From Pomacea canaliculata (taxonomy: Eukaryota), in assembly GCF_003073045.1 (NCBI RefSeq), contig NC_037595.1, positions 8,636,345-8,700,344 on the forward strand: DNA of 64,000 bases. Direction: 5' to 3'. Of this stretch, positions 35,001-51,758 are shown piece by piece (the first letter of the stretch is position 1; every line of letters begins with the position of its first letter). The notes below the pieces were generated by a model that was not told the origin of the DNA, made no database searches, and was given only the letters and a program-made list of their open reading frames with translations. The position numbers and the translations under genes were made by a program.

Positions 35001-38000
35001 TAAAATCTGCAGAAAAGAGGTTAAAGTACTGTGCAATATTTTGAACATACTCATCTCATTCTTTTATGTCTTAATCTTCTTTGTTGCACCAATTTAGTTA
35101 TTACTTTTCTTTAAAATAAATTTTACAATTGTCAGTAGAATGTCCAAGTTTTTGCTTTCAGGATACAGTGAGCTATTTCCATGTGCTCGACCAAAAAATG
35201 AGACCACATTACAAGAAGCTGAAAAATTCGTACAGGTTCAAAAAATTGCCGATTATCATAGATTAAAGTAATTTTAAAGCTCATTTTGTTTTTGAAAAAT
35301 CAGTTCATGTCATAAAATTAATCTAAGAATAAAAAGGGATTTTTCGAACTAACGTGAACTAAAAATTACTGCTTGTTTAAACAGTTTTAAGTGTTAATCA
35401 AAATTTGTAAATTATAGATACAAATAGTGTATTAATTTTTTTCCTGAAACTTTATCATTACACCACAGTTCAGCATTTTGTTTATAAATAAACTAATAAA
35501 TACCATAAAAAGGACTTAATGGGACTATAATGCAATTTAATCTTGCAGCAAGCCCAAGCAGATATGGGTAACACTGAAGTGTTCCGACCTCTTCATGCTT
35601 ACTTCCTCTTGCCACCAGCTAACCAAGCCCTGAGAAATGTGTTCTTGATATCAGATGGTCATCTTAACAATGAATCTTCTGTGTTGAAGGATGCTAGCAA
35701 CAACTATCATCATACCCGCATCTTCACTTTTGGTGTCAGGTGAGAAAGATGGTAGACTGAGAAAGAGAAGAGGGGAGAGAGTTTGGAGAGAGAGAAGAAA
35801 TTAGAGAAGTAGGAGAGACATGAAGTGAGAAAGAATGTGAGAGGTAGAAGAGGGGAAAAGAAAAAGATAAGGGATGGGCAGAAATTATGTGCAGTCACCA
35901 ACAAGCATGTGCCCGTGTGCTGGCACACTTACAAAAACACACATGAACACACTTATAAACATAACCTTCATGACTCAATGTATAAATATGAACTGAACAA
36001 AGAGCTACTACTTATTGTGAATTAATTGTTTATGCATCAAAGGAAGGAAATGGAAGTTTTGCTTCTTTTTAATATGGATTGAAAATGAAGTTCACTTTTA
36101 ATCTTAGCTCATCCTGCAATGCCTACTCACTGCGAGCTCTTGCTCGCATATCTGCTGGCTCATTTGAGTTCTTTGACACCAAAGTCAAATCCAAATGGGA
36201 AGAAAAAGTGAAGGGCCAGCTGCGAAAAGCTGGCCAGCCAGGCCTGACATCTGTCCGTGTTGACTGGCGTCAGTATGATGACAATTTGCCACCACCTGTG
36301 CAAGCTCCATGCCGTATCACAGCATTGTTCAGTGGAGCTCGACAGGTCATCTATGGCTTTGTGCCCAATTGTACAATGGTGAGCGATGCTATGTTAATTT
36401 TTTATAGAACGTTTTAACAATTATTTTTATTATTCAGGGAATGAGATGACAGTGATTTCATTGGGAAAAACAGATGCAGGAGTTGAGGGAGAAAGAAAGA
36501 ATAACCATATTATGTTGGTATTTCTTCTGTTTCAGGCATTTCTTTCTGCTGTTGTGGGAGGTCAGGAAGTTTCTACAGTTGTGTCAACATCTGATCTTGC
36601 CATCACAACTGGATTGGTGAGATAATTAGCAAGCTATAGAGATGTGGATTTTGATTTCCTATGGATGTCTGGTCATTAGCATGATGGACTGATATAGAGA
36701 GAAGAGACGTAGTGTCCTGCAAGTCTAACTGAAATATGACTGTAGGTTTAAATTTTTTTCTGCATAGTAATGGAAATATGATTTTATAATATTTTAGTCT
36801 CTGGTGCTTGTTACTGTCTGTAAAGACTTCTTTAAAAAATGTCAACATTTAAAAATAATAGACAACAATCATATCAAGATATAGTGTGTGAGTGTGTTCA
36901 TGTCTGTACATATAAACATGAATGCATTTGATCAATTTATTTATTTCTTCTTACGTATTACTACAAAATTTTCAGAGAAGTAAGTGACAGTTTCTTGTAA
37001 AAATGTAAATTCTTAAATTAATAATTCTTTTGTATTTAAAAAAAAATGTTTCATTTCTGTGAAGGTTGTACACAGACTGACAGCTCGAGCTTTGATACAG
37101 GACTGGGAAACAGGAATGCTGTCTGATGACCGCACACATCATGAGGTTAGCATTGAGAACAAAGGAAAACCTCCCTTCTTTCCTGACATATTTTTGTCTC
37201 ATAGCAAAGTTACAAGTCTGCCCTTGCACCTGAAGCCTAGCATACACTTTAGATCTTGGAGCAGTGGTTTGAGACACAGTGTTAGGACAGTGCTATGAGT
37301 TGTTTCTCTGTTAATTTTACTTAACAACCCAACTATTAGGAGCTTTGGAGCTATAACTTCTCTTTAACCAAGTGACTACTACTCATGTTCTGTGGGGTTA
37401 GTGGTCCTGTCCTCAAGGAGTTCAACCACACCCTCAACCACAAGATAAATCTTTATAAAAAGTAATGAGCAATGCTTTTGTTTGGTTTATGGCCTACGCT
37501 AGATGCACACCTTGCTGTCATCATGCTCTTTAGTCTGTCCTACTGCTTGATTGCCTTTGTTTCTCAGCTGTTCGCTGGGGCTGTTTTTTTAATTGACAAT
37601 AACCATGGAGCATTTTTGTTTATGCTTTATTTTCCTGTACATTGTTGTCTGCCTTTTGGGTTGGTAAAGGGATCTAAAGATTGTATTATGTGTACATTAT
37701 ATACATTTTATCTATTCCCACTTAGTTATGTTTCCATGAATCAGAATACATAGTATGCAGATTTCTTTTTTTTACTGCTTTAAGCCAAAGGTGATTGTAG
37801 CCATGAAAATTAACTATGCTATTAAAGACAATCCTTAAGAATGAAGTGAGCATTCGTAATTCATCGCTAGTTTGTTCTGATTATCTGCAGGTGGTTCGAA
37901 TGGATGAAAACAGAATATCATTGAGCTGAGCAAGGAGTACTCCATAGTCACGCAGTTCACCTCCTTTATAGCTGTTGAAAAGCGGGACAAGGTGGGAATA

Positions 38001-40613
38001 TAAGTCTTCTTTTTTTTCTTCTTCTTCTTATTATTTATAAAGTGCCTAACCTAAGGACTGAGGTTTACATATAGAGCCAATCACATAGGAACAATCAAAG
38101 AACACATTAAAAAGACAGGAAAGAGTTAGCAAAAATATCAGTGAAAGAACTGCATTTTAAGTGATATTTATAAAGTGAGATAAGAATGTCTAATATCATG
38201 CAACCATTGAAAAGGAAAAGAATTCCAAAGCTGAGTCCTGTAAACAGAGATTGAGCAATAGCATTGTGAATGGCATTTGAATTGCTTATGTTAAAGTAGC
38301 CTTGTTTACAAGGAGGGGAGAGAGAGCAAAAGAAATGTGGATGGACCATCAAATATTGGGCACATGGTGGCAGATTTTTTTAAGGGGCTGAAGATCATGT
38401 CAGGACAACCAGCAAGGAATAAATTATAGTTACTGAATCTGGAAGTGATGCAGGAAGTAACATAATATAGTTTTTTTCGTATCTATATTATGTAAAACAG
38501 AGCCAATGCTTTTCAACTCATAACAGTAGACAAGGCAAACTTTTGTAATGTGTAGTTTTATTGGTAAGTTAAATTCTATAATGAAACAAGTTCTTTGTAC
38601 AATTAAAAAGTTAAATTTTTCTGCAGCCTACACATAATGGCAGAGGAGTAAGAAAAGAAGTCAGAAGTGTATCAGGGAATGGCTGTTGGTTTGCACATAC
38701 TGAATTGAGAGATGTAATAAGGAAACAAGTAATTGATGAATTTCAGCATGTTTCGCAATTAAACTAGACAGTGGTGAACAAAACTAGGCGGAAAACTGAT
38801 CTCTGCAGAATACAATATCAGAATCTTCAGCTGGGACATAAGTATTGCTGGTGAATGATTTGTTATCTGCTTGCAGCAGGGATCACATTTGTTACTGATC
38901 ATTACTGTTGTCTTCACAGCCTCATTCCAGCACAACTGTCTAAGTAAACTGAAACCTTACTACCTGAGTATAGTTTTTTCTGTCGGCCTGTTTACCTTTC
39001 TCTCTATGTTATGCATTAAAAAGGAGAAATTTGGCAAATACTCATTCTCAGGCCTTACTGTTAGGAATTCTCTGTCCCTGTTTCTGCGTTTGAAGCTTTC
39101 AAATGCAGCCTCAAAATCCATCATCTTAAGAAGTATCTTTCATACTTAAAGTGTAATAACTCTTCTCATTCCTTAGTTCTTCATCTTCATTCATACACTT
39201 TAGTTTGTCTTTCCCATGGCATCATCTGTTTTCTGATACTTGTGTTGCTTCACTGTGGTTGACTCTCAGATCATTTGTGGTCTTTTGTGTACAATGCATT
39301 GAACTACCCCAAGTAAGAAAAATGCACTCTACTAATTATTATTATTCTAAAAAGTAGAGGAGATGGAAAATATTAAAGTCATTAACTGATGTGTCCTAAT
39401 ATCTAATGAACACCAGAAGTATGCACAAGCCTTTTTTCTTATTATTCCATTACCCACTCACTGAAGCATAGGGCTGCAACTTCATCACACCAGCGGATCC
39501 GGTTCTGGGTGTCTGTTTCCAGTTGGATACATGTCATGCCAGCTGCCTCCGTCTTGCTGTGGGCTGATCTCCTCCATATCTGTCTGGGTCTCCCAACCCT
39601 TAGCTGCCCTTGTGGGTTCCAGCCCAGAGCTTGTCTTGTTAAATTGTCAGCCAGCTTTCACAGGGTGTGACCGATCCAGCCCCACTTTTGCTTCTTGATG
39701 TCTTGGCTGGCAGGTTTTTGGTTAGTTCTCTGCCACAGATCTGTGTTGGAGATCTTCTGGGTGCATCTGATTTTGAGGATGTGGCGCAGACATCTGTAGA
39801 CAAATGTCTGAATCTTGTTGGGGATGGTATTTGTCATACACCATATCTCAGATCCATATAGAAGGACTGACTTTACATTTGTGGTGCGTAGAGATAGTGC
39901 CTTGGAGTTCCAGATAGGTCTCAGGATGTGGAATGCAAGCCAAAAAGATTGAAAAGATGAAAAGTCATTAACTGATGTATCCTTGTATCTATTGAACAAC
40001 AGAAGTATACACCAGCCTTTCCTTGTCCTGTATTTAGAAAATTGTTATCCAGTATTCCAGATACACCCATGATGATAAGAATATGGCTATTTTTAGAGAA
40101 ATTATTATCACCAAGTAACCTATTTCTTTTTCCTAGGATGAAGACATGAGCAAGAAAGGTCCCTCCATTATTGAACTTGTCAGCAAGGAGAGCATTGACA
40201 TTCTGGACTACATGAGCTGGCAGGAAGAGATGATGGACATAAAAGAAGACCAGCTTGTGAGTTTTTAAAGATTATTTTATGTTTGACGTGATAACTCTCA
40301 ATGCATATTTTTCCCCCTTCTTTGCATCAGGTAGGCATGTCATAATTCTTTTCATAGTTTCATATTTTCATTTTCAACCATTGTTTTATTCTTTTTGTTC
40401 CTCCCACCTTACAGTCCTGACTTTTATTATCCCCTAATTTTGCCTAAAAACATGTGAGCAATTAAAGGCAGTTTTCAAAACAAACTGTCACTTTACTTTT
40501 GTGAAAATTCAGTTCATCATGACATGATGTTTTAACTTTGTCTGTTTCTTTTTTAGGTGGAAGAAGAAGATGTGATCACATCAGCGAAATATGAAAGAAG
40601 AGCAGAAGAATGA
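20077..40613 (+). CDS. PARP4: Vault poly(ADP-ribose) polymerase (PARP4) homolog with BRCT, PARP catalytic, VIT and vWA domains. Multi-exon gene span; at least 25 coding exons detected.
   Basis: Plus-strand exons in order. BRCT: [43 protein letters not shown] (20077-20205) and [15 protein letters not shown]...[25 protein letters not shown] (21004-21202); ...[15 protein letters not shown] (21493-21641). Helical regulatory-like exons follow at 22.3-24.07 kb, e.g. [34 protein letters not shown] catalytic: ...[19 protein letters not shown] (27508-27645), [33 protein letters not shown] (28182-28280), [18 protein letters not shown]...[13 protein letters not shown] (29.31-29.50 kb), [20 protein letters not shown] (29.81-29.97 kb). 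VIT: [55 protein letters not shown] (30.79-31.02 kb) and [26 protein letters not shown] (31.42-31.59 kb); [14 protein letters not shown] (32.69-32.83 kb). vWA: [14 protein letters not shown]...FNVVVFGT (33.25-33.44 kb), [10 protein letters not shown]...[13 protein letters not shown]...[10 protein letters not shown] (35.55-35.74 kb), [25 protein letters not shown]...VIYGFVPNC (36.09-36.38 kb). Then [25 protein letters not shown] (37.06-37.15 kb), [25 protein letters not shown] (37.89-37.99 kb) and [31 protein letters not shown] (40.14-40.26 kb). Last exon 40557-40613 reads [18 protein letters not shown] then TGA. Colinear similarity to human PARP4 (recalled from memory) and the BRCT plus PARP plus VIT plus vWA architecture are PARP4-specific. 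Exon borders show GT and AG. Confidence 0.85.
20315..20482. mobile_element. 168 bp element resembling a MITE (miniature inverted-repeat transposable element) with 13 bp perfect terminal inverted repeats and an ATATA flank, in PARP4 intron 1.
   Basis: The left end CAGGGCTTCTGCT (20315-20327) and right end AGCAGAAGCCCTG (20470-20482) are perfect reverse complements. Both are flanked by ATATA (20310-20314 and 20483-20487). The interior has four copies of a G-rich palindromic submotif, (A/T)GGGGTCCC or GGGACCCC. It has no coding capacity. Confidence 0.5.
24287..24648 (-). repeat. 3' LTR of the retroelement (362 bp).
   Basis: Identical to 26745-27106. Contains three copies of a 27 bp tandem repeat, cttttcgcgctcttttg(c/t)atcagc(g/a)ta, at 24503-24584. 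Contains the identical spurious 60-codon ORF listed in the ORF track. Confidence 0.85.
24989..26695 (-). CDS. Gag-like polyprotein of 568 aa: a Ty3/gypsy-type capsid (Retrotrans_gag-like), one CCHC zinc knuckle, a cold-shock domain (Lin28/Y-box-like) and 8-aa tandem repeats (VTVPVVPE-like). No protease, RT or integrase.
   Basis: ORF 24989..26788 (minus). The probable start is MAEDGDSP (ATG complement 26693-26695), 50 nt downstream of the 5' LTR. The gag signature is ...[25 protein letters not shown]. The zinc knuckle [14 protein letters not shown] (C-x2-C-x4-H-x4-C) is at about 25958-25999. The cold-shock domain [48 protein letters not shown] is at about 25643-25786; compare Lin28 GICKWFNVRMGFGFL...DVFVHQSKLHMEGFRSLKEGEAVEFTF. 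Seven or eight 24 bp repeats encoding (P/S)(E/D)(V/M)TVPVV are at 25025-25210. The stop is at 24989-24991. Confidence 0.75.
   Translation of the reverse strand: MAEDGDSPVEALRTYQLFRLQKFAGGPTPNVEEFQREVQWALTMNPMPQNAACVYVLNALEGPARRRVLMQPHDAIDTPKKILDVLVEAYGERKDVVDVIASFYNRRQRHEESVDEYATTLRNLQAKANSLQSGAMLNIHLAAQFVKGLKNCHVRRETSRHLADNESSSFADLLKTAKRVEREEEGNEDREDEIDRLTARVRQLEMETASQPHRIQQNNIPSTRTARPAALVCYWCEREGHREADCQHKQRYLRRQQARQRDGQRFSPITNSFYRRGGGRRGVQAAAINNISDDSDGGGGRRRGFCRWFNVAKGWGFITPDNGDQDVFVHHSVIHKAGFRSLGKGEVVEFEPRLSYKGVQATFVCGIGGVKCRGSDRRPMSKKEFQNKPVVQLQQQQPQRRQSQAELQRDRFHGRSGRSTCNISSRPVNDSAVYTVRPLVDGPALTLNSDNRAAKSSLQLEDIQLPETQNCQDYDSDEETPFWYGTLPPHQARTRLIPKVTVPVVPEVTVPVVPEVTVCAVPDMTVPKLTVPVVSEMTVSVVPDMTVSVIPEGTVPAVFQPRFAVRQA
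26745..27106 (-). repeat. 5' LTR of the retroelement (362 bp), with U3 tandem repeats, TATA box and ATTAAA.
   Basis: See the 3' LTR. The offset between copies is a constant 2458 bp at start, middle and end, indicating no indels. Identical LTRs imply a very recent insertion. Confidence 0.85.
27508..28280 (+). CDS. PARP4: Two PARP4 catalytic-core exons (27508-27645 and 28182-28280) carrying the nicotinamide-pocket H-S and Y residues.
   Basis: Exon 27508-27645 reads [45 protein letters not shown] with R split across the junction (ttttcag acceptor, AG|gtttgt donor). Exon 28182-28280 reads (R)[33 protein letters not shown] followed by gtaggt. Compare human PARP4 [45 protein letters not shown]. 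The conserved Glu in DDEYVVY (29.8 kb) suggests a catalytically competent ADP-ribosyltransferase. Confidence 0.75.
33690..34840 (+). mobile_element. Degraded 3' portion of an RTE/CR1-like non-LTR retrotransposon (reverse transcriptase C-terminal half), frameshifted, in a PARP4 intron.
   Basis: Plus-strand frames give the RT motifs [96 protein letters not shown] (the FADD box), [67 protein letters not shown] and [12 protein letters not shown]. These span at least three frames with stops, so the copy is a pseudogene. Confidence 0.7.
39430..40000 (-). mobile_element. Second, inverted fragment of the same RTE/CR1-like family (RT C-terminus), in a downstream PARP4 intron.
   Basis: Minus-strand ORF 39658..39999 reads [67 protein letters not shown]. 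Further minus-strand sequence reads [30 protein letters not shown]. The DNA is nearly identical, as a reverse complement, to 34430-34620. Confidence 0.7.
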
Positions 40614-42399
40614 AACGCAAGAAGATATCTGTGGATTCACCTCAACTTCTCCATCAAAGTTACAAGAGTAAAGGTCACAGGAGTTTGTCAGAATCCTCCT
40701 AAAACTGACAGCAATGTCGTTATTTTGTTTTAAATACTACACTTTTCTTTATGTAATGGGATGATCTTTATCTAAACAAGTTAAATATTGTTACCTATTT
40801 GTTGTACAAAATTTCTTGGACTTAATAAGTAGTAATCACAGAATAGATCATATGTTAGTTTTGATAGCTGCTTATTCGTTAAGGAGTAAACTAGATAATG
40901 ATAACTGAATGCAGTGATAAGTCATTTCATTCTTATTTGTGCTGAGTTCCTTAGTGTACCACAGTTATGAGTCTGTGTGTGCTCTTTCTAAGAAATAATT
41001 AACTGCTGTTGTAAATAATAATGGCATGTTTATCTACATAATTGTATTATTGTAGTAGTAGCACCTTTGTCAAAGTGAAAAATATTCTAAAGTTGTTATT
41101 TGTTAATGTGAGCTTGCAAAAGAGAAAGGTAAGCAGTATCATAGCTTGTCTTTTTTTGCTTCCAGTTTGGTACTAATGGAGAGGGAATAAAGAACAATGA
41201 GAAGACATAATTTAAAATGAAGAAATAGAGGATTCTCTATAAAAGTGGTCAAAATTTCTTCCTGAATTTAGACACAAAAATAGATGTTTTAATTGCTGGT
41301 ATCAGTAGAGTGATGTGATCTTAAAAGCTAAAAGTAAGGTGTGAAGTAATTTACATGAATTGTGAATGTTTCAGAGATGGTTTGCTCGGATGAAGATGCA
41401 GAAAGGTCTTTTGATGAATTGTTAAGTTATGAATGTGCAGGTTTGTTGGATGCATAGGACATAAATCTTAATACCAAAATTGTTGCAAGATAACCTTTGA
41501 AATACACTCGCACAAAACAACTTGCACCACAAAAGAAAGTTGACAAGGGATGACAAGCATACAGCAGACATTAAGGGATCAGTTGTACACTACAACATAA
41601 TACAACTTAGCTCACTTTAAGTATCAGAATGTATGCTTAATTTACACTTTGGTCAGATGATAGAAGAAATGGCCAAAGAGGCTTTGAATGAAGATTGGGT
41701 GCTTGTTCAGATGTATCACACATTGAAGCATTCATCCGAAGATAACTTTTTTTTAAAAAGCAAGAATACCTTCTTAAGATCAACACCTTGCCTCTTCTCA
41801 GAAAAATAATTTACTTACTAACCCTAGCAGGAGTATATTCCAAAATTAATTTCCAACTCTAGAAAGTCTGCTCAAGCACATTATTCAGTAGTAGCAGGAA
41901 TTCAGGTTTTTTCCCTCTGGAGGAACTTAAAGCTGGACATTGTACAGGTCATTGCAATATTCGGTTCATTGATTGACAATGCTTTTTGTGAGGAGGTGGC
42001 TATTGCTGTCTTTGCTGACCGAAGTTTATATTAATCTGTCTTGGTGAACTGTTCAGTACCTGTAGGCCGTTTTGTTGTCACCTCATCACATCTTTTTAAT
42101 CTATTTTATGGCATTGCTCCTCTGTCTAGTTCTCTCTAGATGCCTTCATTCCCTTTCTGATGTCACTGTTAATGCTTTGTACTGGGAAGCTGCCTCAGGC
42201 CCACTTTTCCTTTCTTTCTTCCTTCAAGGTCTTGCTATGGTCATTTGTTCATCCCTTGACAGTTAACGAATGCTTATGCTGGTCCACCGGTGCTGGTCAT
42301 CTGGGAGAACGGGTGGATAGATGCAGTTGCTGGCAAGTCTTGCCACTGAGGTCAGTCGTGAGCGGTGATGAGCAGGTCTGCATAGATTGACCACTCCTT

Positions 42400-43500
42400 C
42401 ATGATCGCCACTTTTTCCTCTGTCAGCGTTGGCACACCTACGTACAATGAAGAGTGATCTCAGAATGTCGTGCTGGGTAACACGGCCGAACCAGACTAGC
42501 TAGCACTGCTTGACTGTTGCGAGAACTGGGTCCTGGTGTCCCACAAGGGTAGGAAAATAAAGTCACCGGTTTTCTGTTCCATGTAGAAAATTCATCATCA
42601 GGCACTTGTTCACCTATACCTGGATTCTTCCCTCACTATCGGCAAACAGAGTCTGTGTCTCACATCCTTACAGTAGGATGGCAACTTCGAAGGTTAGGTT
42701 TTTATATAGGTTTTCCTTTGTAGAAAATCTGATGGCGTTGTTGCACCAGATCCTGTCCTGCCCGGCCGTTGCCATTGTTGGTTATGATCCTGATGCAGAC
42801 CTCTGAAGTGCAGAAACCATCTTTAAAAAGAATGTACTGGAGCTGAACTCCGATCATGTAGATCTCTGCATCTTTGTTGCTGTTGGTGTTAATCATGACT
42901 TCACTCCTATCTGTGCTGGTCTCTCTTCCACGTTGCGTTAGCATTGTCTGTCAGTCTCTTGGTAAGGTCTTGCAGTTCGCTGTTGGTTCCTCCATGAGAT
43001 CGATGTCGTCTGCAAAATGTAGGTTGCATAGAGCCTGCCACTGATGGAAATTTAGGCGTGATGGTCGTGAAGGATTTTCTTCTCCAAGAAGATGTTGAAC
43101 AGGACAGGCAACAGGGAAGTAGCCTTGGCAGACACCCACTGGTTGTCTGAAAGAAGTCTTCTAGTTAATTGCTGAATAGAAACGCTTTCAGTGAGCTCTT
43201 ATAAATCGCTTTCATGACTCGAACGATGGTAAATTTGGCAACACATGGCACAGCATCTTGAGTCAGACTGTATGAAATACCTCTTTAAAATTAATGATGA
43301 AAGTTTCGTAAGATATTCCACTGGTATGGTATTTTTTTTTTATCCGAATGTGACAGTTGAAGATCTGTTCAGCTGTGTTCCTTCTTGGATTGAAGCCAGG
43401 CAATTGCTCGGCTAGGTTTGTGTGGCTGAGTGCATACGATTCTGGATTACTTTCAGCATGACTTACGGTTCGGTATATTTGTCACTTTTTTCTTTCTTTG
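42400..43500 (-). mobile_element. Decayed non-LTR retrotransposon reverse-transcriptase fragment (different copy or family); boundaries approximate.
   Basis: Minus-strand ORFs 42951..43139 (…NFHQWQALCNLHFADDIDLMEEPTANCKTL) and 42702..42944 (…TDRSEVMINTNSNKDAEIYMIGVQLQ…) follow the RT FADD-box then KTEVM arrangement of CR1/L2/RTE-like elements. They are interrupted by a stop. Confidence 0.45.
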
Positions 43501-45150
43501 AAAGGTATAGGAAGTAGTGTTTGTGTCCATTCTTTAGGCCAGTATGTGAGTTCTCAGATTCTTTAGCTTAGAGCAGTAAAGACATTTTGTGTTTCTTCCT
43601 ACTCTGGAACGCCATGTGACTTCCTTCCCTTTAGCCTGCGTACAGCTCACAGGTCCTCTTCCCGTCAGACTGGTAGGTCTGCAGGCTCTCTGGTTGTTTG
43701 GAATGATGATGGCGGCTGTCCTCAGCTGGAACTTGTACAGGTCCAAGTACGTCGGCTTAGCAGTTGCTTTCTTTGTGGTTGCCTTGACTAAAGACTTGTG
43801 GTGACCTGTCTTGGTGAGGTCTTCAGTAGCGGGTAGGCCTTCCTGCTGTTACTTTGCGCCATTCCCTCCCTCAGTGGTTCGGTATTGGTCCTCAATACAG
43901 ATCTCCATGGGTATCTTCATCACTATCCTGGCCTCGCAGTTCGCTTCTTCTGCTTTTCTTTTTTTTTTTTAAAAATGCCCGTCTTTGGCTACAAAGATCT
44001 AGGATATCATTCGTGACCCAGGATTGTTTCTTTTTCCTCTGCCTCCCTAAAACCTTTTAGGATGTTAAAAGTAGTACCATTAGGATGCTTTCTGCGAGGG
44101 TGTCTACATTGCAGTCTACTTGTTCCACAACGTTCAGGTCTTGCAGCTTCTCCAAGTCAAAGAGAATTATGGGGTAGGTGACATGGTGTTTCATCTTTAG
44201 CTTTAACGTAGGCTGGTTAACACGAGCATGTCGCTGCCTATATTGCCATTTGGATATGATCTTGTCTGAGCCTTGTCTGGTTTCCTTCCCACTGTACCAG
44301 AACGTGACCTTCGTCTTTTGCTTTCGCTACAGGTCACGGCCGTCTGACCTTTGGCAGCCTTTCATTGTCTCGGCTGTATCGGTCTAGCTCGTGAGTTCTT
44401 TCATCTTGCTTCACGGATGTGCGGACGTCTACGCGCACCAAAGTCCCCTCCCAGCTATATCTGGTGGTTTTGCTCCAGTAGCACACTTTTCGCTGGCCTC
44501 TTCCTGGAGTTCTCTGGGGTGGTGCGTGGTCGTTGTTGATCCAGGCCTCGACCGATTCATTGTTAAATTTTGTTTGCTTTCAATGACCCTGGACCTTTCT
44601 CACATCTAATACACCTAGTGTCGTCCAATGCCTTTTAAACAATGGGTCACTATGGTCGATTTGTAGGTGTGAATAGAATATTCAGCTAAACAGCAGGGAG
44701 AAAATGCTATAAAACTGGAAGAAAATCTGTATACTATGACCAAATAAAGACCGGCTGTCCCTCATGATTTACCCTCTCTCTATCAGTTTATGCGTGAGTG
44801 GGTAGGACGGTGGGATTGTTTGCGCGCGCGCGTCTGTCTCGGGAAAGGTAATGAGGTGAATGGTTTGTGCAGTGAGTTTGTGGAGGTATAGGTTATTAGA
44901 ATGGAAACATGAGCAAGGAAACTATAGACAGTAACAGCTGAAATTCTGATCATTACTGACAACAATAATTGTTCACAGTGATGACCATAGATTAAAGCTT
45001 TTGTACATATCACCATTCTCCATTTTCTTTTAGTCTATAATTTCTGCAGGCTACTTAGTCTTTCAGTGTGTTTTCCATGTGCTCTATGTTAGCCATAACG
45101 ATTAGCGTGTGTTAGCATGTGGCTACAGACCTCGCTAATTCACAAGATTA

Positions 45151-45801
45151 ATGAATGTTACAGATGTTGAGTGGGGTGGCGAAGATGTCAACATTGACAG
45201 ATTCTCGAAGCACTCGTCCGAGTCTTTTTTAGTGCCATGTTTGTCTGGTATGTCAGACTCCGTCTCACAAAGTAATAGTATCAGCAGAAGAAGACTCGCA
45301 GGAGGAAGACCAGGTGGTAGAGGCAGAAAAGCATACCTGGACAGTGAAGATTCTGCAGACCGATTCATGGTAACCCGGAGTTGTGAGTCAGCAGACATGG
45401 ATTCGTTCTTTCGTCGGAGTAGTGCGAAAAGAACTGATGTTCAGGACATGGCGTCAGCACCATACTTTAAAGCATCTGCTGGAGAATCTGAAGAATCTGA
45501 AGCATTAGAGCTTCTTAACAGAGGTAGAGGCCATCCCGTATACTCTCCAAGGTCTCCGACGTATCAAAAGCAGAGTTTTGGGGAAATTTTACAATCAACT
45601 TCATCCGCAGGAGGAATTGTACAAGCTCAGCCAGCAGCCCAAGGACAGAATCTGATGTTTGGAGCCGCACCGTTTTCTGTAAAACCATGTTCCTTTCAAC
45701 AACCCACGGGTAGATCTGAAGAAGAACCAGAGCTGGAAGCAGCACAGAGTGTATTTTTAGGCCCTATACGTTCACGGTCAGACCTGCAGTGGCTTCAGTA
45801 G
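45151..45801 (+). CDS. Intronless ORF part 1 (216 codons): a Ser/Arg-rich and acidic N-terminal region ending in an FG-like motif. It is joined, apparently by a frameshift, to the repeat ORF that follows.
   Basis: An ATG at 45151 follows a CpG-rich stretch (gtttgcgcgcgcgcgtctgtctcggg at about 44.82 kb). The product contains SPRSPTYQKQSFGEI and MFGAAPFSVKPCSFQQ. The frame-1 stop TAG is at 45799-45801, while frame 3 is open from 45720, giving an 80 nt overlap. Confidence 0.4.
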   Translation: MNVTDVEWGGEDVNIDRFSKHSSESFLVPCLSGMSDSVSQSNSISRRRLAGGRPGGRGRKAYLDSEDSADRFMVTRSCESADMDSFFRRSSAKRTDVQDMASAPYFKASAGESEESEALELLNRGRGHPVYSPRSPTYQKQSFGEILQSTSSAGGIVQAQPAAQGQNLMFGAAPFSVKPCSFQQPTGRSEEEPELEAAQSVFLGPIRSRSDLQWLQ

Positions 45802-46500
45802 GTCTCTTTGGTTGCAAGGCTTCAATGCCAGCTTCAATTGAAATGTTAGCTTCAGCGAGATCCCCTTTAGTTGGATTTGGAGGCATGGATTCTTCAAAGG
45901 CAACAGGTTTTGGGACAACATTTGGATTTGGAGGGGACGCACATTCAGGAGTCTTTGGAGCAGCACCTTTCTCACAGACTGCACCGTTAGCAGCACCTTT
46001 AGTACAGGCTATACCGCCAGCAGCATTTTTCTCACAGACTACACCGTCAGCAGCATTTTTCTCACAGACTGCACCGCCAGCAGCACCTTTCCCACAGATT
46101 TCAACGCAAGCAGCATTTTTCTCACAGACTACACCGTTAGCAGCACCTTTAGTACAGGCTACATCGCCAGCAGAATTTTTCTCACAGACTACACCGTCAG
46201 CAGCACCTTTACTACAGGCTACACCGTCAGCAGCACCTTTCCCACAGATTTCAACGCAAGCAGCATTTTTCTCACAGACTGCACCGCCAGCAGCACCTTT
46301 CGCACAGATTAAACCGTCAGCAGCATTTTTATCACGGGCTACAGCGCCAGCAGCACCTTTCTCACAGGCTACACCGCCAGCAGCATTTTTCTCACAGACT
46401 GCACCGTCATCAACACCTTTCCCACAGACTACAGTACAACGCCACTCACATTCAAATGCCAGTGCCGAAGTGCCGGTGTGTGTCCCAATGGGTAAGCAAG
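45720..46500 (+). CDS. ORF part 2 (about 260 codons), encoding FGFGG/VFGAAPF motifs and then about 13 tandem copies of an 11-aa unit (FFSQT[AT]P[PS]AAP / FPQISTQAA / LVQATSPAE).
   Basis: The translation reads GFGGMDSSKATGFGTTFGFGGDAHSGVFGAAPFSQTAPLAAPLVQAIPPAAFFSQTTPSAAFFSQTAPPAAPFPQISTQAAFFSQTTPLAAP.... The underlying DNA is a 33 bp-period tandem repeat (cagcagca(t/c)ttt(t/c)ctcacagactacaccg(t/c)). The frame-3 upstream stop is a TGA at 45717-45719. The track's 'M' at 45789 is a GTG, so the true start is unclear. Confidence 0.4.
45960..46440 (+). repeat. 33 bp-period tandem repeat array of about 14 imperfect copies, forming the coding repeats of the ORF above.
   Basis: Units such as ctcacagactacaccgtcagcagcatttttc and ctcacagactgcaccgccagcagcacctttc recur head-to-tail. 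Confidence 0.7.
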
Positions 46501-48360
46501 CAGTCTTATTGTTTTTTCAGTTGTTTTATTTGTTTGTTTATTTATTTGTTTACCGTGTTTGGTATTAAGAAGCAAAGAAAACTAATGGAAAAATATTCCA
46601 TATCATTTGAATATAATATGAATTAGCAGAAGACCTCCAGTAAACGTTAAAATTTCTTCTTATTTGACACAAGAAAAATTTCATTTGTTGATATCTATAA
46701 AATTAAAATGATCTAACAAGCTAATAGTGGATGTAAATAATTTATATGAATACTGGACGTTTCAGAAAAGTCGGTTGGCTTAGAGCCAACTCCTTTCTTT
46801 CGCAAGAGATGGCGACTTTCCAGGTTTGTTTGATGCATCTGAATTGTTGAGTAATAACCTGTGAAATACACTTGCAGAAACTCGCAGCTCAAAGCAAGTT
46901 GTCAGGGTCTCCGAAGCTTTTTCTTTTTTTTTTTGTATTCACAGGTTCTTTTGATTGCATGCTGCTTTTTTTGTTTTGTTTTGATCGACAGATTCTGATT
47001 GCCCTATTTTATTTGTTGTGGTTACCATTCTTCATGGTGTCCAACATTTTTAAGATCTTGTTCTCGATTCTGATTTTTTTTTATTATAACACCGACATTA
47101 ACTTTCAGTTCTGCTTCATCCATGGTTCTTCTTGTGTCCGACATGCCATTATGGGACCATTTTCACTTGGACTTAAAGCGATCCGGGACGACTAAACTGT
47201 CTCCTGTAACTTAGTCTGCATCGATCTGCATTCAGAGCAGACGTCTGTAGTCGGCAGTTTGTCTTTGATGACCTAGCACCCCTCTACAACCTGGAAGTAG
47301 GCGCTGTCCTTGACAGACATGCACCGCTCTCCACCCGCTGTGTCGCTGATTGCCAACCTACCCCATGGCTCATCCCTGAGGTTTGAAAACAATTGCAAAG
47401 AGAGCGCGGCATCGGTTGAAAGCCAGTGGAGAAAGGCGAGCCTCACGGCTCACACATATTTTTTCCTGTGTCACAGGGAGATGACAAAGCGTTGGTGTAG
47501 TTCTTCAAACATTCGATTTAAAAAAAAAGGCAAGCCAGACTAATATTCATCAAGTAGGGATTGATTTCGGATTGTGCGCCAGATGTTAAGCCAAAACTAA
47601 GGTGCCTTCTACCATTCTTCTTGAACAGCCGCCTGATATGTTCTTTAAATACTTTCTGAAAAAGTCGGGGATGGACCCACAGTCTCACAATTCTAGTTTT
47701 GGTGTTTCCTCCTGAGTTTGTCCCTGTCGCCGAGTCCCAGGTCAGGAGATCGTCAGAAATTCTCCAAAGAAATCTTGTTTCTCGACTCGATTACGTCCCG
47801 TCTCCTACACGAGTGCCTTGACTTGACCACTCGAGTTATCACTCAGCTGGAACTATTCTGCTGACTCCTAATCTTCATCATTTTCATTCATACATTTAAT
47901 TTGTGTTTGCCGTAGTGTTTTCCCTTTACAAACGCTGTGTTTCTGTCGGTTTGTTTGTAGTCTTTCGCGTGCAGCGCATGGACCTCGCATCCACACGGGA
48001 GAGTGCGCTTCACAAATTGAACTGTTTTATTATTCGTAGTAGTAATATGCCCAATTTGCACTTTATCTAGACGAGAGCAGTAAGAACAAGTAAGACTTAA
48101 CCTGCAAAATACTACATTTTGAAGCGCAATAACAATTGTATTATACTGCTTACAAAGAGTTAAGGGTCAGAGAATATCTCGCAAAAAATCATCCGCAGGT
48201 GTGACTTTTCATGTTGTACTTTGATTATTTGTTCGATAGTAAAGTGAGAAAAGTAATTTCTTTTCTAAATCATTTCTGTTCCAAGATACAGGCAGTCAAA
48301 AATACTCCCGACCCCCGAATCAGAAAGTCACAGGACCTGTCAGAGCACTTCGGCATAGCA

Positions 48361-48381
48361 AAAAAAAAAAAAAAAAAAAAA
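48361..48381. repeat. A21 homopolymer followed by AT-rich (ATAA)n-like sequence; a possible retroposon tail.
   Basis: aaaaaaaaaaaaaaaaaaaaa ataatgataataaataaataaattaataataaaag. Confidence 0.8.
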
Positions 48382-48595
48382 TAATGATAATAAATAAATA
48401 AATTAATAATAAAAGAAATAAAGGTGACTGCCATTTACTGACATGCATTCAGCACTCTGAAGTGTCATAATTGCTGATCAGACGCATAGTTCTGTAGTTC
48501 TGGCGCTACTGTTTTCTATTTTTGGAAGGGGTATGTATGACTATTTACTGGATTTATTCATTGAGCCATTCGGCACAGAGCATTGAGAGCATTTG

Positions 48596-49072
48596 TTATT
48601 TCATCCCTTCCTTGTCTTTTTTCATATGATTTTCCTGCCTTTCGATGGCATGCCACTCTTTTGAGCTCTTCCCGTTGGATTGGTAAGTCTGCAAGGTCGC
48701 TAGTTTCAATCTGGTTGTTTTTACCGATGTTACGTTTGTCTTCTGCTGGACATTGTTAACTTGCAAAGGTCTTTGCAATATTCAGTCTGTCAGCTTAGTA
48801 CAGCAATTATCTCCGTGAGAAGGCGGCCATTGCTGTCTTCGATGATTAAGGTCTTGTGTTGACGTCTTGATGAGTATCTTTAGTAATTGGTAAGTGTTTT
48901 TGCTGTCACCCCGTGCTATACCCTCCTCTGTGGTAATGATTTGGCCCTCGATGAAGTTATCCTTTACTGCTTTCATCTCTTTCCTGATGACCCAGTTCAT
49001 TTTTCTGTACGCGGAAGCTACTTTGGGTCGCTTTTTTGTGCACTGAAAGGTTTGGTTCACCAGTACAGGCAT
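48596..49072 (-). mobile_element. Possible retroelement-derived ORF fragment (similar to the region upstream of the RT in non-LTR elements). Weak call.
   Basis: Minus-strand ORFs of 96 and 60 aa (…QCTKKRPKVASAYRKMNWVIRKEMKAVKDNFIEGQIITTEEGIARGDSKNTYQLLKIL…) loosely resemble the segment preceding RT in RTE/L1-like ORF2. An A21 tract lies nearby at 48361-48381. Confidence 0.2.
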
Positions 49073-49363
49073 TGCTTTATTTTCCGTGATTTTCGTGCGT
49101 ATTTAAAGCATTAGGGACGCAGTCAACATGTATTAAAACAAGTACAGATCATTAAAGTACTGTGTATAGTCACACTTTCCAGTTTCAGTTCATTTCACAA
49201 TGTTTAGCTATCTATGGATAGTATACATTCTTAGGACTAACACCTGCATGTATTCTGAAGTAACCATTCATTACTAAAAGCTTTTATCTCCACCTCTAGA
49301 AAGTGCTTCAGCACAAAGTTCAGTATCATCAAACATTCAGTGTTTTTTTTTTATCTGATTCAG

Positions 49364-50187
49364 AAGACGTATACGACGATCTAACATCGACCGCAGCCAA
49401 TCAGCCACCACCATCACCACTACCACACAAAGCGAAAAGGTCAAATGCTGACTCACTGCCGAAACGACGACCTTGTTCTAATCAACTCAGGATATCACAG
49501 GAGTTCTCAAGTGAGCAGCTAGACAGACAAGAACCGCCGGCACCACCACAACAACTTAAATCAGGAGACGAGATAAAAGGATTAGCAGAATCACGTTTAG
49601 CAATAAAATTTGCCGCTGGAACGTTGTTACAACAACGAAGATCATTGATACAACGATCATGCAAATCCCAGGTGAGCCCGGATACAACCTACTATCATTC
49701 TGTTAGGCCTCATGCATCCTGCTCGAGAGCAGAGTCAGACCAAGAGAGATCTGAATCCCCGAAGGCTAGAGGCACAAGGTGGGATGTATTTAATGACGAA
49801 GCAATGTTAGAAGAGCAAGGAGCACAGCCAAGTGTCAAACGTCCCCTATCTAAAATGATGGAAAAGTCTCTTCGCCAAACGCAAGACATTGCCGCTGGTG
49901 GTCCGGAGAAATTGGTGAGTGAGGAAGAAGCGGTGTTAGATCTGAGAGAAAAGAAGACAAAGAAGAAGGGTTCCCTTGAACAGGGTATAATCAGTCGCTT
50001 TGAGAGCGAGATCGACTTCCTTCAGCGACAGCTGGAGTTTCAGGTCGGGGGCAAGTCCGGGCTGATGGACTACACTGCCGACGCCAAAGGGCAGGTGCCT
50101 GCCATCCGAGAGGCGGAGAGTAACCGGACCATCGACCAATGGCTGCAGCCGGACGTCTTGAAAACGCTGCTCATGTTGCCAGACAAG
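49364..50187 (+). CDS. Large exon of a gene of unknown function, encoding a Ser/Pro/Gln/Glu-rich, probably disordered region. It starts at an acceptor, so the 5' exon or exons were not located.
   Basis: Acceptor tttttttttatctgattcag|AAGACG at 49364. The ORF track frame (49303..50226) is open through to the donor GACAAG|gtaact at 50187. The content reads ...PPPSPLPHKAKRSNADSLPKRRP...EEQGAQPSVKRPLSKMMEKSLRQTQD...ISRFESEIDFLQRQLEFQVGG...QWLQPDVLKTLLMLPDK. The track's 'M' at 49303 is a GTG. Confidence 0.5.
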
Positions 50188-50603
50188 GTAACTTCTGCCT
50201 TGATGATGACGAGGAGAATGCCTTAATGATGATAACCGACTATCTTTTCTTGATGGTGACGCTGACAATGACAAGGACATTGACCATACCTTGATGAAGA
50301 ATAAAGATTTTTGTAATATTCTTTGGTTGGCCTATCATCAAAGATAAAAAAATGTCTATACATTCTGTTGGATGGCGTGTTATAATGATGCATTTTGCTA
50401 ATGACTGTCTTACCTTATGTGTATGTTATGTGTATCTGTATTGTTAAATACATTACTTTATGTATGTTTTGTGTATCTGTATATTATAGGATAAAAATAA
50501 AGTTTGAAACATTCGGTAGGTGATACTGTTCAAATGCTGTTTAGGTAGGTTGGTGTAAATGAGACCAGATCAAACGAAATAATGAGATTTCTTATTTGTA
50601 CAG

Positions 50604-50930: not shown

Positions 50931-51423
50931 TTAAAAAATGTCCCACCCTTCCAGCAGCTTTCTTAAAGAAATCAGATTTATCAGGCAAGACATAGGTAGC
51001 GGAAAGAGAGAGCTGGCTCTGTCTTGTACATGCCACGCTCCAGACACAATGGTTCACTTACCTTCACAGTCTCCACGACGACAAGGCTACGCGGATCTGT
51101 ATCTTAAGCAGGGAAGGCTAATAGCAATGGTGGTATACACACGTATATATACGTGTTTACCAGCTTAGTGTGGCTTTGACGCTTTATGGATGATACAGCT
51201 GTGCTCATTTGTTCCTGCTTGCCATTATTACAAAACCTCACGAGGAGGTTCGCATAAAAAGTAAAAACCTCTACCATAGACATTGGAAGTGAGAAGGGGA
51301 ACAGGCGCTGTATGTAACTGATCTGTGATTGCCCATACACGCACAAGCGCGCGCATACACACAGGTACACGCATACACAAGCACACACGTGTGTGTATCA
51401 ATGCATTTTCCCACTTTTGACAG

Positions 51424-51758
51424 GCGAGTCTGCTGCCAGCAGCCTGCAGAAAGTGGTGGCCACTCTACTGGTGCTGATCTCGCTCCTGCAAGTTCTGCTG
51501 CCCGAGCTGTCCCCGCCCGACTTGGTGCAGCTGCTCAAAGCCTCCATCGCCAGGTTCGCCGACAGCGAGCTGCAGTGCAAGGTCAGGTTGGCCTTAGAGG
51601 GCAGAAAACTCGAGCTACCCAACGACCTTATGAACCGCCTCGAAAAGGCGCTGTGCTACTGCAAGGTCATGGACGAACGCCATCCGTTGTCCTGTTCCTC
51701 GCTGGAGCTGGCATCCGATTGGCCAACTCTCTGCGTCAACCTACTCGGCTTAGCCTGA
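51424..51758 (+). CDS. Terminal exon of the same gene: a conserved-looking alpha-helical C-terminal domain with a stop at 51756-51758. Product unidentified.
   Basis: Acceptor ccacttttgacag|GCGAGT. Using the 1 nt carried from exon 2, it reads (G)ESAASSLQKVVATLLVLISLLQVLLPELSPPDLVQLLKASIARFADSELQCKVRLALEGRKLELPNDLMNRLEKALCYCKVMDERHPLSCSSLELASDWPTLCVNLLGLA*. Codon usage here is G/C-ending-rich compared with the flanks. Confidence 0.55.

Follow-up and report, generated by a model that had tools for sequence, protein, structure and literature searches.

The window analysed here, a stretch of 64,000 nucleotides of Pomacea canaliculata DNA, contains the PARP4 (vault PARP) locus of the apple snail on its plus strand. 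The upstream exons of the gene are located at 20077–40256 and encode the BRCT, PARP catalytic, VIT and vWA modules, including an 'ILDYMSW' exon. They were mapped by tblastn using the P. canaliculata PARP4-like protein P0005 and orthologues from Batillaria and Littorina. P0005 matched plus-strand exons from 20077 to 37148 at ~100% identity, and two further exons (37908–37991 and 40137–40256) were added by the orthologues. Together with the Pfam domains listed for P0005, this places BRCT, PARP catalytic, VIT and vWA exons upstream of the stretch 45151–46500, which starts on the same strand 4.9 kb after the final exon of the vWA module. Neither a ubiquitin-like exon nor the acidic MGFxLFD motif, both found in other gastropod PARP4 tails, is present within 37–52 kb, and scans of 40–52.5 kb with Rfam and for tRNAs and inverted repeats yielded nothing relevant.

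Two further PARP4 exons are located downstream on the plus strand. The first one (49364–50187; 275 codons in a 308-codon open segment) was supported by P0125, which is 87% identical, and by alignment of PARP4 C-termini of Aplysia, Pecten and fish. A disordered, hypervariable linker makes up its first two thirds, and the MINT domain starts in its last ~60 codons. The exon start at 49364 was confirmed by comparison with the related contig L001, since indels just upstream of it comprise 2 and 8 nt, while all indels within the exon are multiples of 3. The last exon (51429–51758) encodes the rest of MINT, ends with a TGA at 51756–51758 and uses a phase-0 acceptor (AG at 51427–51428); another AG at 51422–51423 was rejected as out of phase. 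A family HMM of the last exon matched the C-terminus of full-length Pecten PARP4 (residues 1975–2081 of 2082, E 2e-19) and also PARP4 C-termini of Mytilus, about 90 fishes, one sponge and one coral. The family profile also matched residues 1573–1713 of human PARP4 (PDB 9bw6, 9bw7 and 11jf from vault cryo-EM; E 6.2e-25), in which MINT comprises residues 1562–1724 (PMC12280208). Judged by these sequence matches, both exons encode the conserved MVP-interaction (MINT) domain at the PARP4 C-terminus. An alignment with Batillaria P0127 spans their junction, so that the two exons form one protein.

Between these groups of exons, the stretch 45151–46500 is open in two frames. Frame 0 contains an ORF of 216 aa (45151–45801), while frame +2 is open from 45720 to 46565 and contains an ORF of 259 aa (45789–46568). 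The open frames overlap by ~80 nt, and with one base restored and ATG 45151 as start they give 447 codons, in agreement with a preliminary description of this DNA, which had reported two overlapping frames encoding together about 450 aa. Stops are present in all three frames over 45100–45150, and the minus strand of the stretch contains no ORF longer than 87 aa. The stretch had also been described as having no introns. It is indeed one long open exon, but this exon ends at a canonical donor (ATGG/GTAAGC) at 46492. The candidate linker exon of PARP4, in the following termed the large exon, thus covers 45139–46491 on the plus strand, with a 5′ edge between 45139 and ~45257. The intron to the next PARP4 exon (46492–49363, plus strand) would have a phase-1 donor (TGG/GTAAGC) and a phase-1 acceptor (tttttttttatctgattcag/AAGACG), which are compatible by sequence. 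For residues 1–447, AlphaFold2 predicted no secondary structure, whereas it placed helices in the last 200 residues of this chain. A supposedly CpG-rich stretch just upstream turned out to be a (CG)5 microsatellite without an island (CpG o/e 0.80 at 44% GC).

The large exon contains an FG-like cluster (45577–45959, plus strand), in which 8 FG dipeptides (SFGE, MFGAAPF, GLFGC, VGFGG, TGFGTTFGFGG, VFGAAPF) span residues 143 to 270. These 8 dipeptides, with 1 FxFG and 1 GLFG, are the complete FG inventory of the product. FG-like motifs had therefore been recognized correctly, and their resemblance to FG-nucleoporins is compositional only. The cluster is followed by a tandem decapeptide array (45960–46439, plus strand) of 16 units of 30 bp, composed of 25% A, 18% P, 12% F, 12% T, 11% S and 11% Q. 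For 45959–46433, TRF reported 15.8 copies of a 30-bp (10-residue) unit with 76% matches, and a separate repeat search found a spacing of 30 nt throughout the array. Its units, such as AAFFSQTAPP, AAPFPQISTQ and AAPLVQATSP, show a higher-order period of 5 units; an example peptide from the predicted snail product is AAFFSQTAPPAAPFPQISTQ. Of the originally proposed array of about 13 units of 33 bp and 11 residues, the tandem organization holds, but not the period and the copy number, which are 30 bp (10 aa) and ~16.

Openness of a frame across a 30-bp repeat is unremarkable, and frame +1 through the array is also open except for one stop. When 64 kb sequences of the same composition were simulated, 12% contained a 220-codon open segment, so that ORF1 alone is weak evidence; a segment of at least 308 codons occurred in 0 of 200 simulations. 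The open segments of 220, 282 and 308 codons are collinear on one strand with phase-compatible splice sites between them, which exceeds chance. Codon-usage log-odds are ~0 per codon in the stretch compared with 0.15–0.56 in structured PARP4 exons; they exceed those of intron controls, but what mainly drives this test is the lack of stops, and with PARP4 exons as training set it is uninformative for a disordered exon. Between the array units, 8 of 10 columns vary at codon position 1, 8 of 10 at position 2 and 2 of 10 at position 3, giving a 3-base periodicity (p about 0.003–0.008), and among the variant alleles of the units 0 of 24 are synonymous. Frame 0, in which the variation seems rich in synonymous changes (222 synonymous versus 223 nonsynonymous), was considered as the true array frame and ruled out because of 7 stops in 45799–46200.

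These data bear on a non-coding origin, in which an intronic 30-bp minisatellite open by chance would lie beside a chance 220-codon ORF. Openness of the unit in most frames, the window-wide chance probability of ORF1 (0.12), the lack of homologues and the weak codon-usage signal would fit this explanation, as would the absence of synonymous variation among the units, by which purifying selection on the peptide is not indicated. We nevertheless regard it as very unlikely, since the MINT exons need an upstream phase-1 donor, which the stretch supplies where its open frame ends, since 3-base periodicity between units is not expected of non-coding DNA, since FGAAPFS is encoded in both ORFs, each time in the respective open frame, and since a linker of 550–850 aa with such character occurs at the same position in every full-length PARP4 protein.

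The frame break is located in the two-frame zone 45720–45798 (plus strand), which is free of stops in frame 0 as well as in frame +2. The only homopolymer of at least 4 bases in this zone is a T5 run at 45754–45758, the candidate site of a missing base. The DNA motif encoding FGAAPFS is present at 45655 (frame 0) and at 45942 (frame +2); as these copies are 287 nt apart (2 mod 3), one extra base lets both be read alike. Deletion of 1 nt in a homopolymer is a typical long-read error. The published P. canaliculata reference assembly, assumed to be the source of the window, was obtained from PacBio CLR data with smartdenovo and Pilon '-fix bases' (PMC6129957). Most likely, the break results from the loss of 1 nt from the T5 homopolymer in the assembly. 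A sequencing or assembly indel in the overlap, listed last among the options of the preliminary description, is therefore the best-supported explanation.

A second defect of the same kind is located 7.8 kb upstream of the T5 break. The conserved exon 37891–37991 carries an A4 run (37907–37910, plus strand), in which one A is missing and the frame is shifted. With one A added, the exon matches the orthologues, has a length of 102 nt and regains phase 0 for the exon at 40137. The missing A leads to the premature end of the RefSeq PARP4 protein (1175 aa). Since this upstream one-base defect truncated the public gene model, nothing is annotated at the stretch 45151–46500, and the missing annotation of the linker exon is probably due to one-base assembly errors. 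The 1175-aa public model of P. canaliculata PARP4 thus appears truncated and would lack ~900 residues including the vault-placing domain.

Alternatively, the break at 45720–45798 could be real, either as a genuine intron of 80 or 89 nt (GT 45710 to AG 45789 or 45798) or as a true 1-nt frameshift allele, i.e. a young loss of function of the long isoform. The GT and AG boundaries exist, removal of 80 or 89 nt (both 2 mod 3) restores the frame, and two frameshifts in one gene could also signal recent pseudogenisation. The donor, however, scores 2.0 and the acceptors about −6 without a polypyrimidine tract, whereas the 16 verified PARP4 introns have donors of 4.7–11.2, acceptors of 5.7–15.9 and a minimal size of 157 nt, and the mini-intron was rejected as the main explanation on these scores and its size. 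Longer introns into an acceptor at 45856 scored better but were rejected, as most of ORF1 would be lost. Both shifts require +1 nt and both are at homopolymers. In the downstream conserved exons, 0 nonsynonymous and 4 synonymous differences to L002 were found (over part of the exon together with the last exon), and 0 nonsynonymous and 3 synonymous differences to L001 in the final third of exon 49364–50187. Other stops are absent. A real break is therefore improbable in our view.

With an assembly deletion at the T5 run as the preferred explanation, the relation of the large exon to PARP4 can be considered. Direct splicing from 40256 to 49364 would break the frame, and an intervening exon with a length of 1 mod 3 is therefore needed. 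From an acceptor at 45211 and with one base restored, the large exon comprises 1282 nt and fits this need. Phase-consistent chains lead from 40256 to 45211 or via 44787–44847 to 45164, but their acceptors are weak; the acceptor candidates at the 5′ edge score −0.5 to 2.6 compared with 5.7–15.9 for the known ones. Enumeration of intermediate exons in 40.3–45.1 kb gave many candidates, none of them convincing except possibly 44787–44847. The predicted protein would have a total length of ~2,060–2,080 aa, matching Pecten (2082) and Mytilus (2036) PARP4. Based on the location in the PARP4 locus, the assignment of the domains on either side, the phase-1 fit of 46492 and 49364 and this total length, we consider it probable that the stretch represents the largest coding exon of apple snail PARP4, encoding a disordered linker of ~430–450 residues. 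Judging from splice phases, the large exon is probably spliced into the PARP4 mRNA. The idea of a stand-alone intronless gene is not in accordance with the continuation via the donor at 46492 towards the two MINT exons.

The 5′ edge would also fit a first exon, as an in-frame stop (45136–45138) is followed by ATG 45151 and no strong acceptor is found there. By gene fission or an alternative promoter, the large exon could then be the first coding exon (ATG 45151 or 45250) of a separate three-exon transcript for an FG-like, decapeptide-containing disordered protein with the PARP4-derived MINT, which would be docked to the vault without enzyme activity. Catalytic PARP4 would end at a candidate alternative terminal exon (40557–40613, plus strand), which has an acceptor score of 7.8, a stop codon and an AATAAA at 41186 and would yield a short PARP4 without linker and MINT. 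RefSeq contains separate MINT-bearing models for Haliotis asinina (XP_067674270.1) and Aplysia (XP_005096629.2, with an initial Met), split models are found in GenBank for Nucella and Batillaria, and RefSeq PARP4 models of Littorina and Gigantopelta are without MINT. Such split models are, however, to be expected as artefacts where exons are long and of low complexity or assemblies carry frameshifts, and one artefact of this kind was demonstrated here. The Aplysia PARP4 model is flagged 'partial'. MINT is part of the same chain in bivalve, fish, coral and sponge PARP4, and P0135 contains MINT together with a ubiquitin-like domain of the gastropod type in a single chain. Phase-consistent chains from 40256 exist as well. 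A separate transcript is unlikely.

Database searches were consistent with a lineage-specific sequence. No protein resembling the large-exon part was found among 5.8 billion sequences (word-indexed search) or 1.84 billion sequences (full HMMER search), and ORF calls from related runs, which did yield the two downstream exons, also contained nothing like it. Lineage-specific low-complexity coding sequence, as one of the initial suggestions had it, is a correct label for the sequence as such. Neither the two ORFs nor the downstream exons gave a match in Pfam scans; these scans left out the PARP4-specific models PF26156 and PF26166, which are known from precomputed annotations. In the word-indexed search, the whole product matched only primate PSGL-1 decamer repeats (E 3e-5 to 8e-4, 31–33% of the query). 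The repeat-free tail gave no match there because of the limited sensitivity of the index, whereas the full HMMER search did find the MINT family.

These results also concern the earlier suggestions of a nucleoporin, a retrogene or a secreted hydrogel protein. Similarity searches with the repeat and the non-repeat parts revealed no nucleoporin, only the low-complexity PSGL-1 matches and the MINT family downstream. A POM121-type or other FG-nucleoporin gene, a retrogene or a secreted mucin-like protein of the PSGL-1 type might be suspected from the FG dipeptides, from the RefSeq name 'POM 121' of the Aplysia counterpart and from the fact that primate PSGL-1 decamers are the sole database matches of the repeat. 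However, no Pfam nucleoporin FG or POM121 match was obtained at E up to 10, and the few FG motifs listed above are all that is present. The POM121-type NPC anchor, an N-terminal transmembrane segment, is absent, and the C-terminus is the PARP4 MINT; since the Aplysia 'POM 121' also ends in this domain, its name is a compositional mislabel. The product has neither a signal peptide nor a transmembrane segment (maximum Kyte-Doolittle 19-residue window 1.12; hydrophilic N-terminus with a mean of −0.94), and the PSGL-1 matches are confined to the repeats and of low complexity. A retrogene does not agree with the lack of a poly(A) remnant after the ORF, where the sequence is T-rich and not A-rich, with the canonical donor leading to further exons, or with the absence of a parent or homologue in the searches. 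All these identities are extremely unlikely.

Evidence on selection came from the adjacent linker exon. In the first 102 codons of exon 49364–50187, comparison with L001 gave a dN of 0.175 and a dS of 0.027, i.e. a dN/dS of 6.4 (Fisher p 0.002), and the difference to the flanking intron (5 mismatches in 327) was pronounced (p 3e-10). This value is from a single pairwise comparison of the adjacent exon with a related genome of roughly 99% identity, the flanks of the segment being about 98.5% identical, and not from a phylogeny. The ORF of the exon is preserved in L001, and its last third differs only synonymously. The AlphaFold2 prediction, the lack of homologues, the missing synonymous variants and this dN/dS together characterize the linker as disordered, lineage-specific and rapidly evolving. 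Localized positive selection has been reported in the largest exon of vertebrate PARP4 (PMC4038475). From the single pairwise dN/dS over 102 codons and the zero synonymous variation among the 16 units, it may tentatively be proposed, though with some doubt, that the apple snail linker is a hypervariable surface under diversifying selection and repeat-exchange expansion, as is mammalian exon 30. The presumed host-pathogen conflict at vault PARP would then be at least as old as bilaterians. As part of this tentative proposal, the gastropod linker plus MINT may additionally be expressed alone as a vault-docked FG-like disordered protein.

In the preferred reading as a PARP4 linker exon, the encoded linker would consist of an SR/acidic stretch, the short FG-like cluster and the 16 A/P/F/T/S/Q-rich decapeptides. 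It would join the BRCT-PARP-VIT-vWA body to the C-terminal MINT, which docks the enzyme to the inner face of the vault shell. By analogy to human exon 30, it could serve as a flexible, fast-evolving tether or surface. Its sequence and length might change quickly, through diversifying selection on point substitutions and through unequal exchange between 30-bp units, while only frame openness and overall composition would be kept. The stretch is thus most likely an ordinary, if fast-evolving, portion of a known gene.

The PARP4 layout, with a long, fast-changing disordered exon between a conserved enzyme body and a conserved vault anchor, does not seem to be a vertebrate speciality. If dN>dS is upheld across ampullariids, the recognition targets of the linker could be studied independently in molluscs. 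The 1175-aa model and several gastropod annotations that split off the PARP4 tail, one of them named POM121, would mislead PARP and vault phylogeny as well as nucleoporin catalogues.

Several known systems resemble the snail linker. The PSGL-1 (SELPLG) decamers share the 10-residue period and a QTT-P-A-rich unit with the snail array, but PSGL-1 is a type I membrane mucin of the secretory pathway, whereas the product predicted for the snail lacks both a signal peptide and a transmembrane segment and would belong to a cytosolic enzyme; the match is compositional. FG-nucleoporins with cohesive FG domains are likewise disordered and have Phe in a polar uncharged A/P/S/T/Q context, and a few FG, GLFG and FxFG motifs are found in the snail linker. 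By analogy, its physical behaviour, i.e. weak multivalent aromatic contacts, could be similar. Differences are the low number of 8 FG dipeptides, the lack of an NPC anchor domain and of a family match, and the FF and PF motifs in place of FG in the array.

A further counterpart is Aplysia californica XP_005096629.2 (P0130, 'nuclear envelope pore membrane protein POM 121'), which is modelled as a separate gene and has the same order of a Pro-rich part, FG-type repeats, S/T/P-rich tandem repeats and MINT. Its last 167 residues align at E 1.6e-13, but its repeats, (GGATFGSS)n and SPTSPAY-like, are unlike the snail peptides. The contigs of this model and of Aplysia 'PARP4, partial' both have a length of 1,452,686 nt and are presumably the same contig. 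Lineage-specific tandem repeats are also found in the linkers of Pecten maximus P0046 (QQAQAFTSPIPPPPP), Micropterus salmoides P0086 (FQSEPAFSASADTLPPP..SFGFS) and Ephydatia muelleri P0043 (LTVGALPPRPAPPP). These Pro/Ala/Gln/Ser/Phe-rich repeats of 14–30 residues are located upstream of MINT as in the snail, but each unit is specific for its lineage and none is homologous to AAFFSQTAPP.

A comparison is also provided by human exon 30, the largest vertebrate PARP4 exon with about 360 aa (Daugherty et al. 2014, PMC4038475). No sequence similarity is detectable between the two exons, the snail exon is dominated by the 16-copy decapeptide array and the short FG-like cluster, and in the snail two or more exons share the linker. 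However, like the snail exon, human exon 30 is the largest of its gene, is located between the vWA module and the MVP-interaction domain, and is disordered with a lineage-specific sequence and length. In vertebrate PARP4, dN/dS exceeds 1 locally while the rest is conserved, and the corresponding signal in the snail comes from the adjacent linker exon and the nonsynonymous bias among the repeat units.

The open stretch at 45151-46500 (+) consists of two overlapping frames, as the preliminary description had stated, namely an ORF at 45151-45801 (216 aa, frame 0) and an open frame +2 at 45720-46565; the longest ORF on the opposite minus strand has at most 87 aa. With one base restored, the product comprises 447 residues from the ATG at 45151 (A 15%, S 14%, P 10%, F 9%, T 7%, Q 7%) and contains neither a hydrophobic N-terminus nor a transmembrane segment. 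The FG-like motifs reported earlier are present as eight FG dipeptides clustered at residues 143-270. A tandem array was also found, but instead of 13 units of 11 residues it contains about 16 decapeptides (AAFFSQTAPP, AAPFPQISTQ, AAPLVQATSP and others); at 45959-46433, the unit of 30 bp is present in 15.8 copies with 76% matches and a spacing of 30 nt in every case. What had been described as CpG-rich sequence upstream amounts to a (CG)5 run and does not have the properties of an island. AlphaFold2 (single sequence) predicted no secondary structure for residues 1-447, whereas the last 200 residues of the chain were modelled with helices; for the former, this output is consistent with disorder and nothing further. 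Open segments of 220 codons arise somewhere in 12% of simulated windows, and a frame that stays open across a 30 bp repeat is no more than chance predicts. A 308-codon open segment (49300-50223, +) lies 2.8 kb downstream, and its length was reached in none of the simulations.

Plus-strand open segments at 28-37 kb code for PARP catalytic, VIT and vWA sequences, and a protein search with these segments returned PARP4, the vault poly(ADP-ribose) polymerase, from many animals. The best match was the RefSeq protein P0005, 'poly [ADP-ribose] polymerase 4-like [Pomacea canaliculata]' (1175 aa), most exons of which are 100% identical to 20077-37148; orthologues from Batillaria, Littorina and others add exons at 37908-37991 and 40137-40256. 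For the stretch itself, the 49300-50223 segment and an ORF at 51393-51758, Pfam gave no match and a word-indexed search of 5.8 billion proteins gave no hits. Searching 1.84 billion representatives exhaustively with HMMER likewise gave nothing matching the stretch itself, but recovered an ORF 87% identical to 49364-50187 (P0125), an identical last-exon ORF (P0126) and 11 distant relatives of the last ~110-150 residues of the tail. An HMM of this tail family matches the extreme C-terminus of full-length PARP4 from Pecten (E 2e-19), Mytilus, about 90 fishes, a sponge and a coral, and a tail profile with the snail sequence first matches human PARP4 from vault cryo-EM entries over residues 1573-1713 (E 6.2e-25). 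In the human protein, residues 1562-1724 form the MVP-interaction (MINT) domain, which docks the enzyme inside the vault cage (PMC12280208), and the snail tail is identified as this domain. The Batillaria protein P0127 can be aligned past the point where the last two exons meet, and no additional residues are needed there in the multiple alignment. Together with the upstream exon matches and the MINT tail, this delimits the PARP4 locus to 20077-51758, so that the stretch falls within the locus, with the vWA module on one side and MINT on the other. The locus is flanked upstream by a myosin motor-domain exon (7285-7824, -; Pfam Myosin_head, E 4e-17) and downstream by a glycosyltransferase family 92 gene (54784-60739, -; Pfam Glyco_transf_92). 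The MINT-coding last exon (51424-51758) is GC3-rich (about 60% GC), whereas the upstream PARP4 exons are AT-rich; therefore, when codon usage is learned from these upstream exons, the model picks the wrong frame for it.

The frame of the stretch ends at a GTAAG donor at 46492 (phase 1), which speaks against a self-contained intronless gene. The next exon start at 49364 is preceded by a T-run and CAG and has the same phase. In L001, a contig of a related genome (Logan run SRR34434951), indels of 2 and 8 nt are located just upstream of 49364, while those within the exon measure 3, 6, 6 and 6 nt and the reading frame remains open, which fixes the exon start at 49364 and shows that an open frame is selected for. 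The acceptor of the last exon must be the AG at 51427-28 (phase 0; K|SAASS), in agreement with the alignment. Splicing 40256 (phase 0) straight to 49364 is out of frame, which calls for an exon in between whose length is 1 mod 3. The stretch from an acceptor at 45211 has this property with one base restored (1282 nt); a second phase-consistent chain uses a 61-nt exon (44787-44847) followed by an acceptor at 45164. All 5′ acceptor candidates of the exon are weak, so that either chain is tentative.

The frame break could be bridged by a GT-AG interval of 80 or 89 nt, whose donor scores 2.0 and whose acceptors score close to -6. Such a mini-intron was rejected as the main explanation because its splice scores and size fall below those of the 16 verified PARP4 introns in the window (donors 4.7-11.2, acceptors 5.7-15.9, shortest 157 nt). 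The motif FGAAPFS occurs twice, in ORF1 and at the head of the array, 287 nt apart and each in its own open frame, which indicates one missing base; within the zone where both frames are open, T5 at 45754-58 is the sole homopolymer of at least 4 bases. Decisive for this question is the conserved PARP4 exon 37891-37991, because it has the same type of defect in the same gene. As assembled, it translates to the exact C-terminus of P0005; with one A added to the A4 run at 37907-37910, its translation agrees with that of all orthologues, and the exon length can then be divided by three, as required by the splice phase of the neighbouring exons. The published reference assembly of the species, assumed here to be the source of the window, was built from PacBio CLR reads with Pilon '-fix bases' correction (PMC6129957). 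Both shifts, each needing +1 nt at a homopolymer, are most simply explained as assembly deletions, which favours the sequencing indel also considered at first; a real frameshift allele is conceivable. The two deletions would leave the tail without an annotated protein, and the public gene model appears to be short by about 900 residues through the shift at 37907-37910.

The stretch was therefore correctly noticed as a real feature but misread: it is best regarded as an unannotated, repeat-rich, disordered linker exon of the known gene PARP4, carrying a probable one-base assembly error. There is room for a short catalytic PARP4 isoform plus a separately transcribed product of linker and MINT, given the in-frame ATG directly after a stop, the weak 5′ acceptors and a possible alternative terminal exon at 40557-40613 with a good acceptor, a stop codon and AATAAA at 41186, use of which would yield an isoform without linker and vault-docking domain. 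An ancient fission is opposed by P0135, a single chain that carries MINT as well as a ubiquitin-like domain of the gastropod type, and by the bivalve PARP4 models, which are single genes.

Several PARP4 introns contain sequences resembling mobile elements. The intron 24070-27508 harbours a 599-aa ORF (24989-26788, -) with a gag-like N-terminal part, a CCHC knuckle, a cold-shock domain at residues 334-396 (Pfam CSD, E 6e-20) and C-terminal VPVVPE(V/M)TV repeats, a mixture unusual for a transposon-like ORF. Pieces of one LINE-type reverse-transcriptase element (Pfam DUF6451), with peptide sequence in common, were found in two introns in opposite orientations (33600-34600, +; 39658-39999, -). Between the linker exon and exon 49364, there is an A-rich run (48352-48393, about 18 A) whose inverted-repeat partner is a T-run at 43945-43979; the A-rich run probably represents a retroposon tail.

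Among the 16 repeat units, 8 of 10 first, 8 of 10 second and 2 of 10 third codon positions are variable (periodicity p about 3e-3), and none of 24 variant alleles is synonymous (29% expected for random changes). Such periodicity should be absent from non-coding DNA, and the scarcity of third-position and synonymous variants is the opposite of the pattern of purifying selection; the variation fits diversifying peptide change, with units that coalesce within a short time. The neighbouring exon 49364-50187 was compared with L001 and a second contig, L002, which have variants in common and are both ~98.5-99% identical to the window in introns, 3′ UTR and MINT-coding parts. In the latter, all seven differing codons are synonymous, two of them present in both contigs. 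The first 102 codons of the exon (49366-49671) differ from L001 at 36 nonsynonymous and 2 synonymous sites plus in-frame indels (dN 0.175, dS 0.027, dN/dS 6.4, Fisher p 0.002; p 3e-10 against the flanking intron with 5/327 mismatches). This is a hypervariable coding segment, in which the differences separate either alleles or closely related species.

All full-length PARP4 proteins examined contain a low-complexity linker of 550-850 residues at this position, often built of lineage-specific tandem repeats, as in Pecten, Micropterus and Ephydatia. Among other gastropod and lophotrochozoan PARP4 tails (P0006-P0011, P0023, P0135), it is seen that in many mollusc PARP4 proteins the vWA module is followed by a ubiquitin-like domain and by acidic 'ESDEEMGFSLFD' motifs similar to the tail of ribosomal P-proteins; both are absent from the Pomacea window. 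The MINT-bearing tail is annotated as a separate gene model in Aplysia (P0130), Nucella (P0131), Batillaria (P0127) and Haliotis asinina (P0134), and in Nucella and Batillaria these fragments lie two locus tags from the respective PARP4 models. The Aplysia counterpart combines FG-type repeats with MINT, although RefSeq names it 'nuclear envelope pore membrane protein POM 121'; its contig equals in length that of the Aplysia 'PARP4, partial' model and is presumably the same one. The initial nucleoporin impression thus reflects compositional resemblance only, the same that misled an annotation pipeline, and none of the features defining a nucleoporin, POM121, a retrogene or a mucin was found in the stretch. 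The sole aspect beyond routine is the hint, from one pairwise comparison, that the PARP4 linker of a mollusc is under diversifying selection. Daugherty et al. reported that the largest exon of vertebrate PARP4 (human exon 30, ~360 aa) is disordered, differs in length and alone shows strong positive selection (PMC4038475), the same picture of fast change beside conserved remaining parts as in the snail exon 49364-50187.
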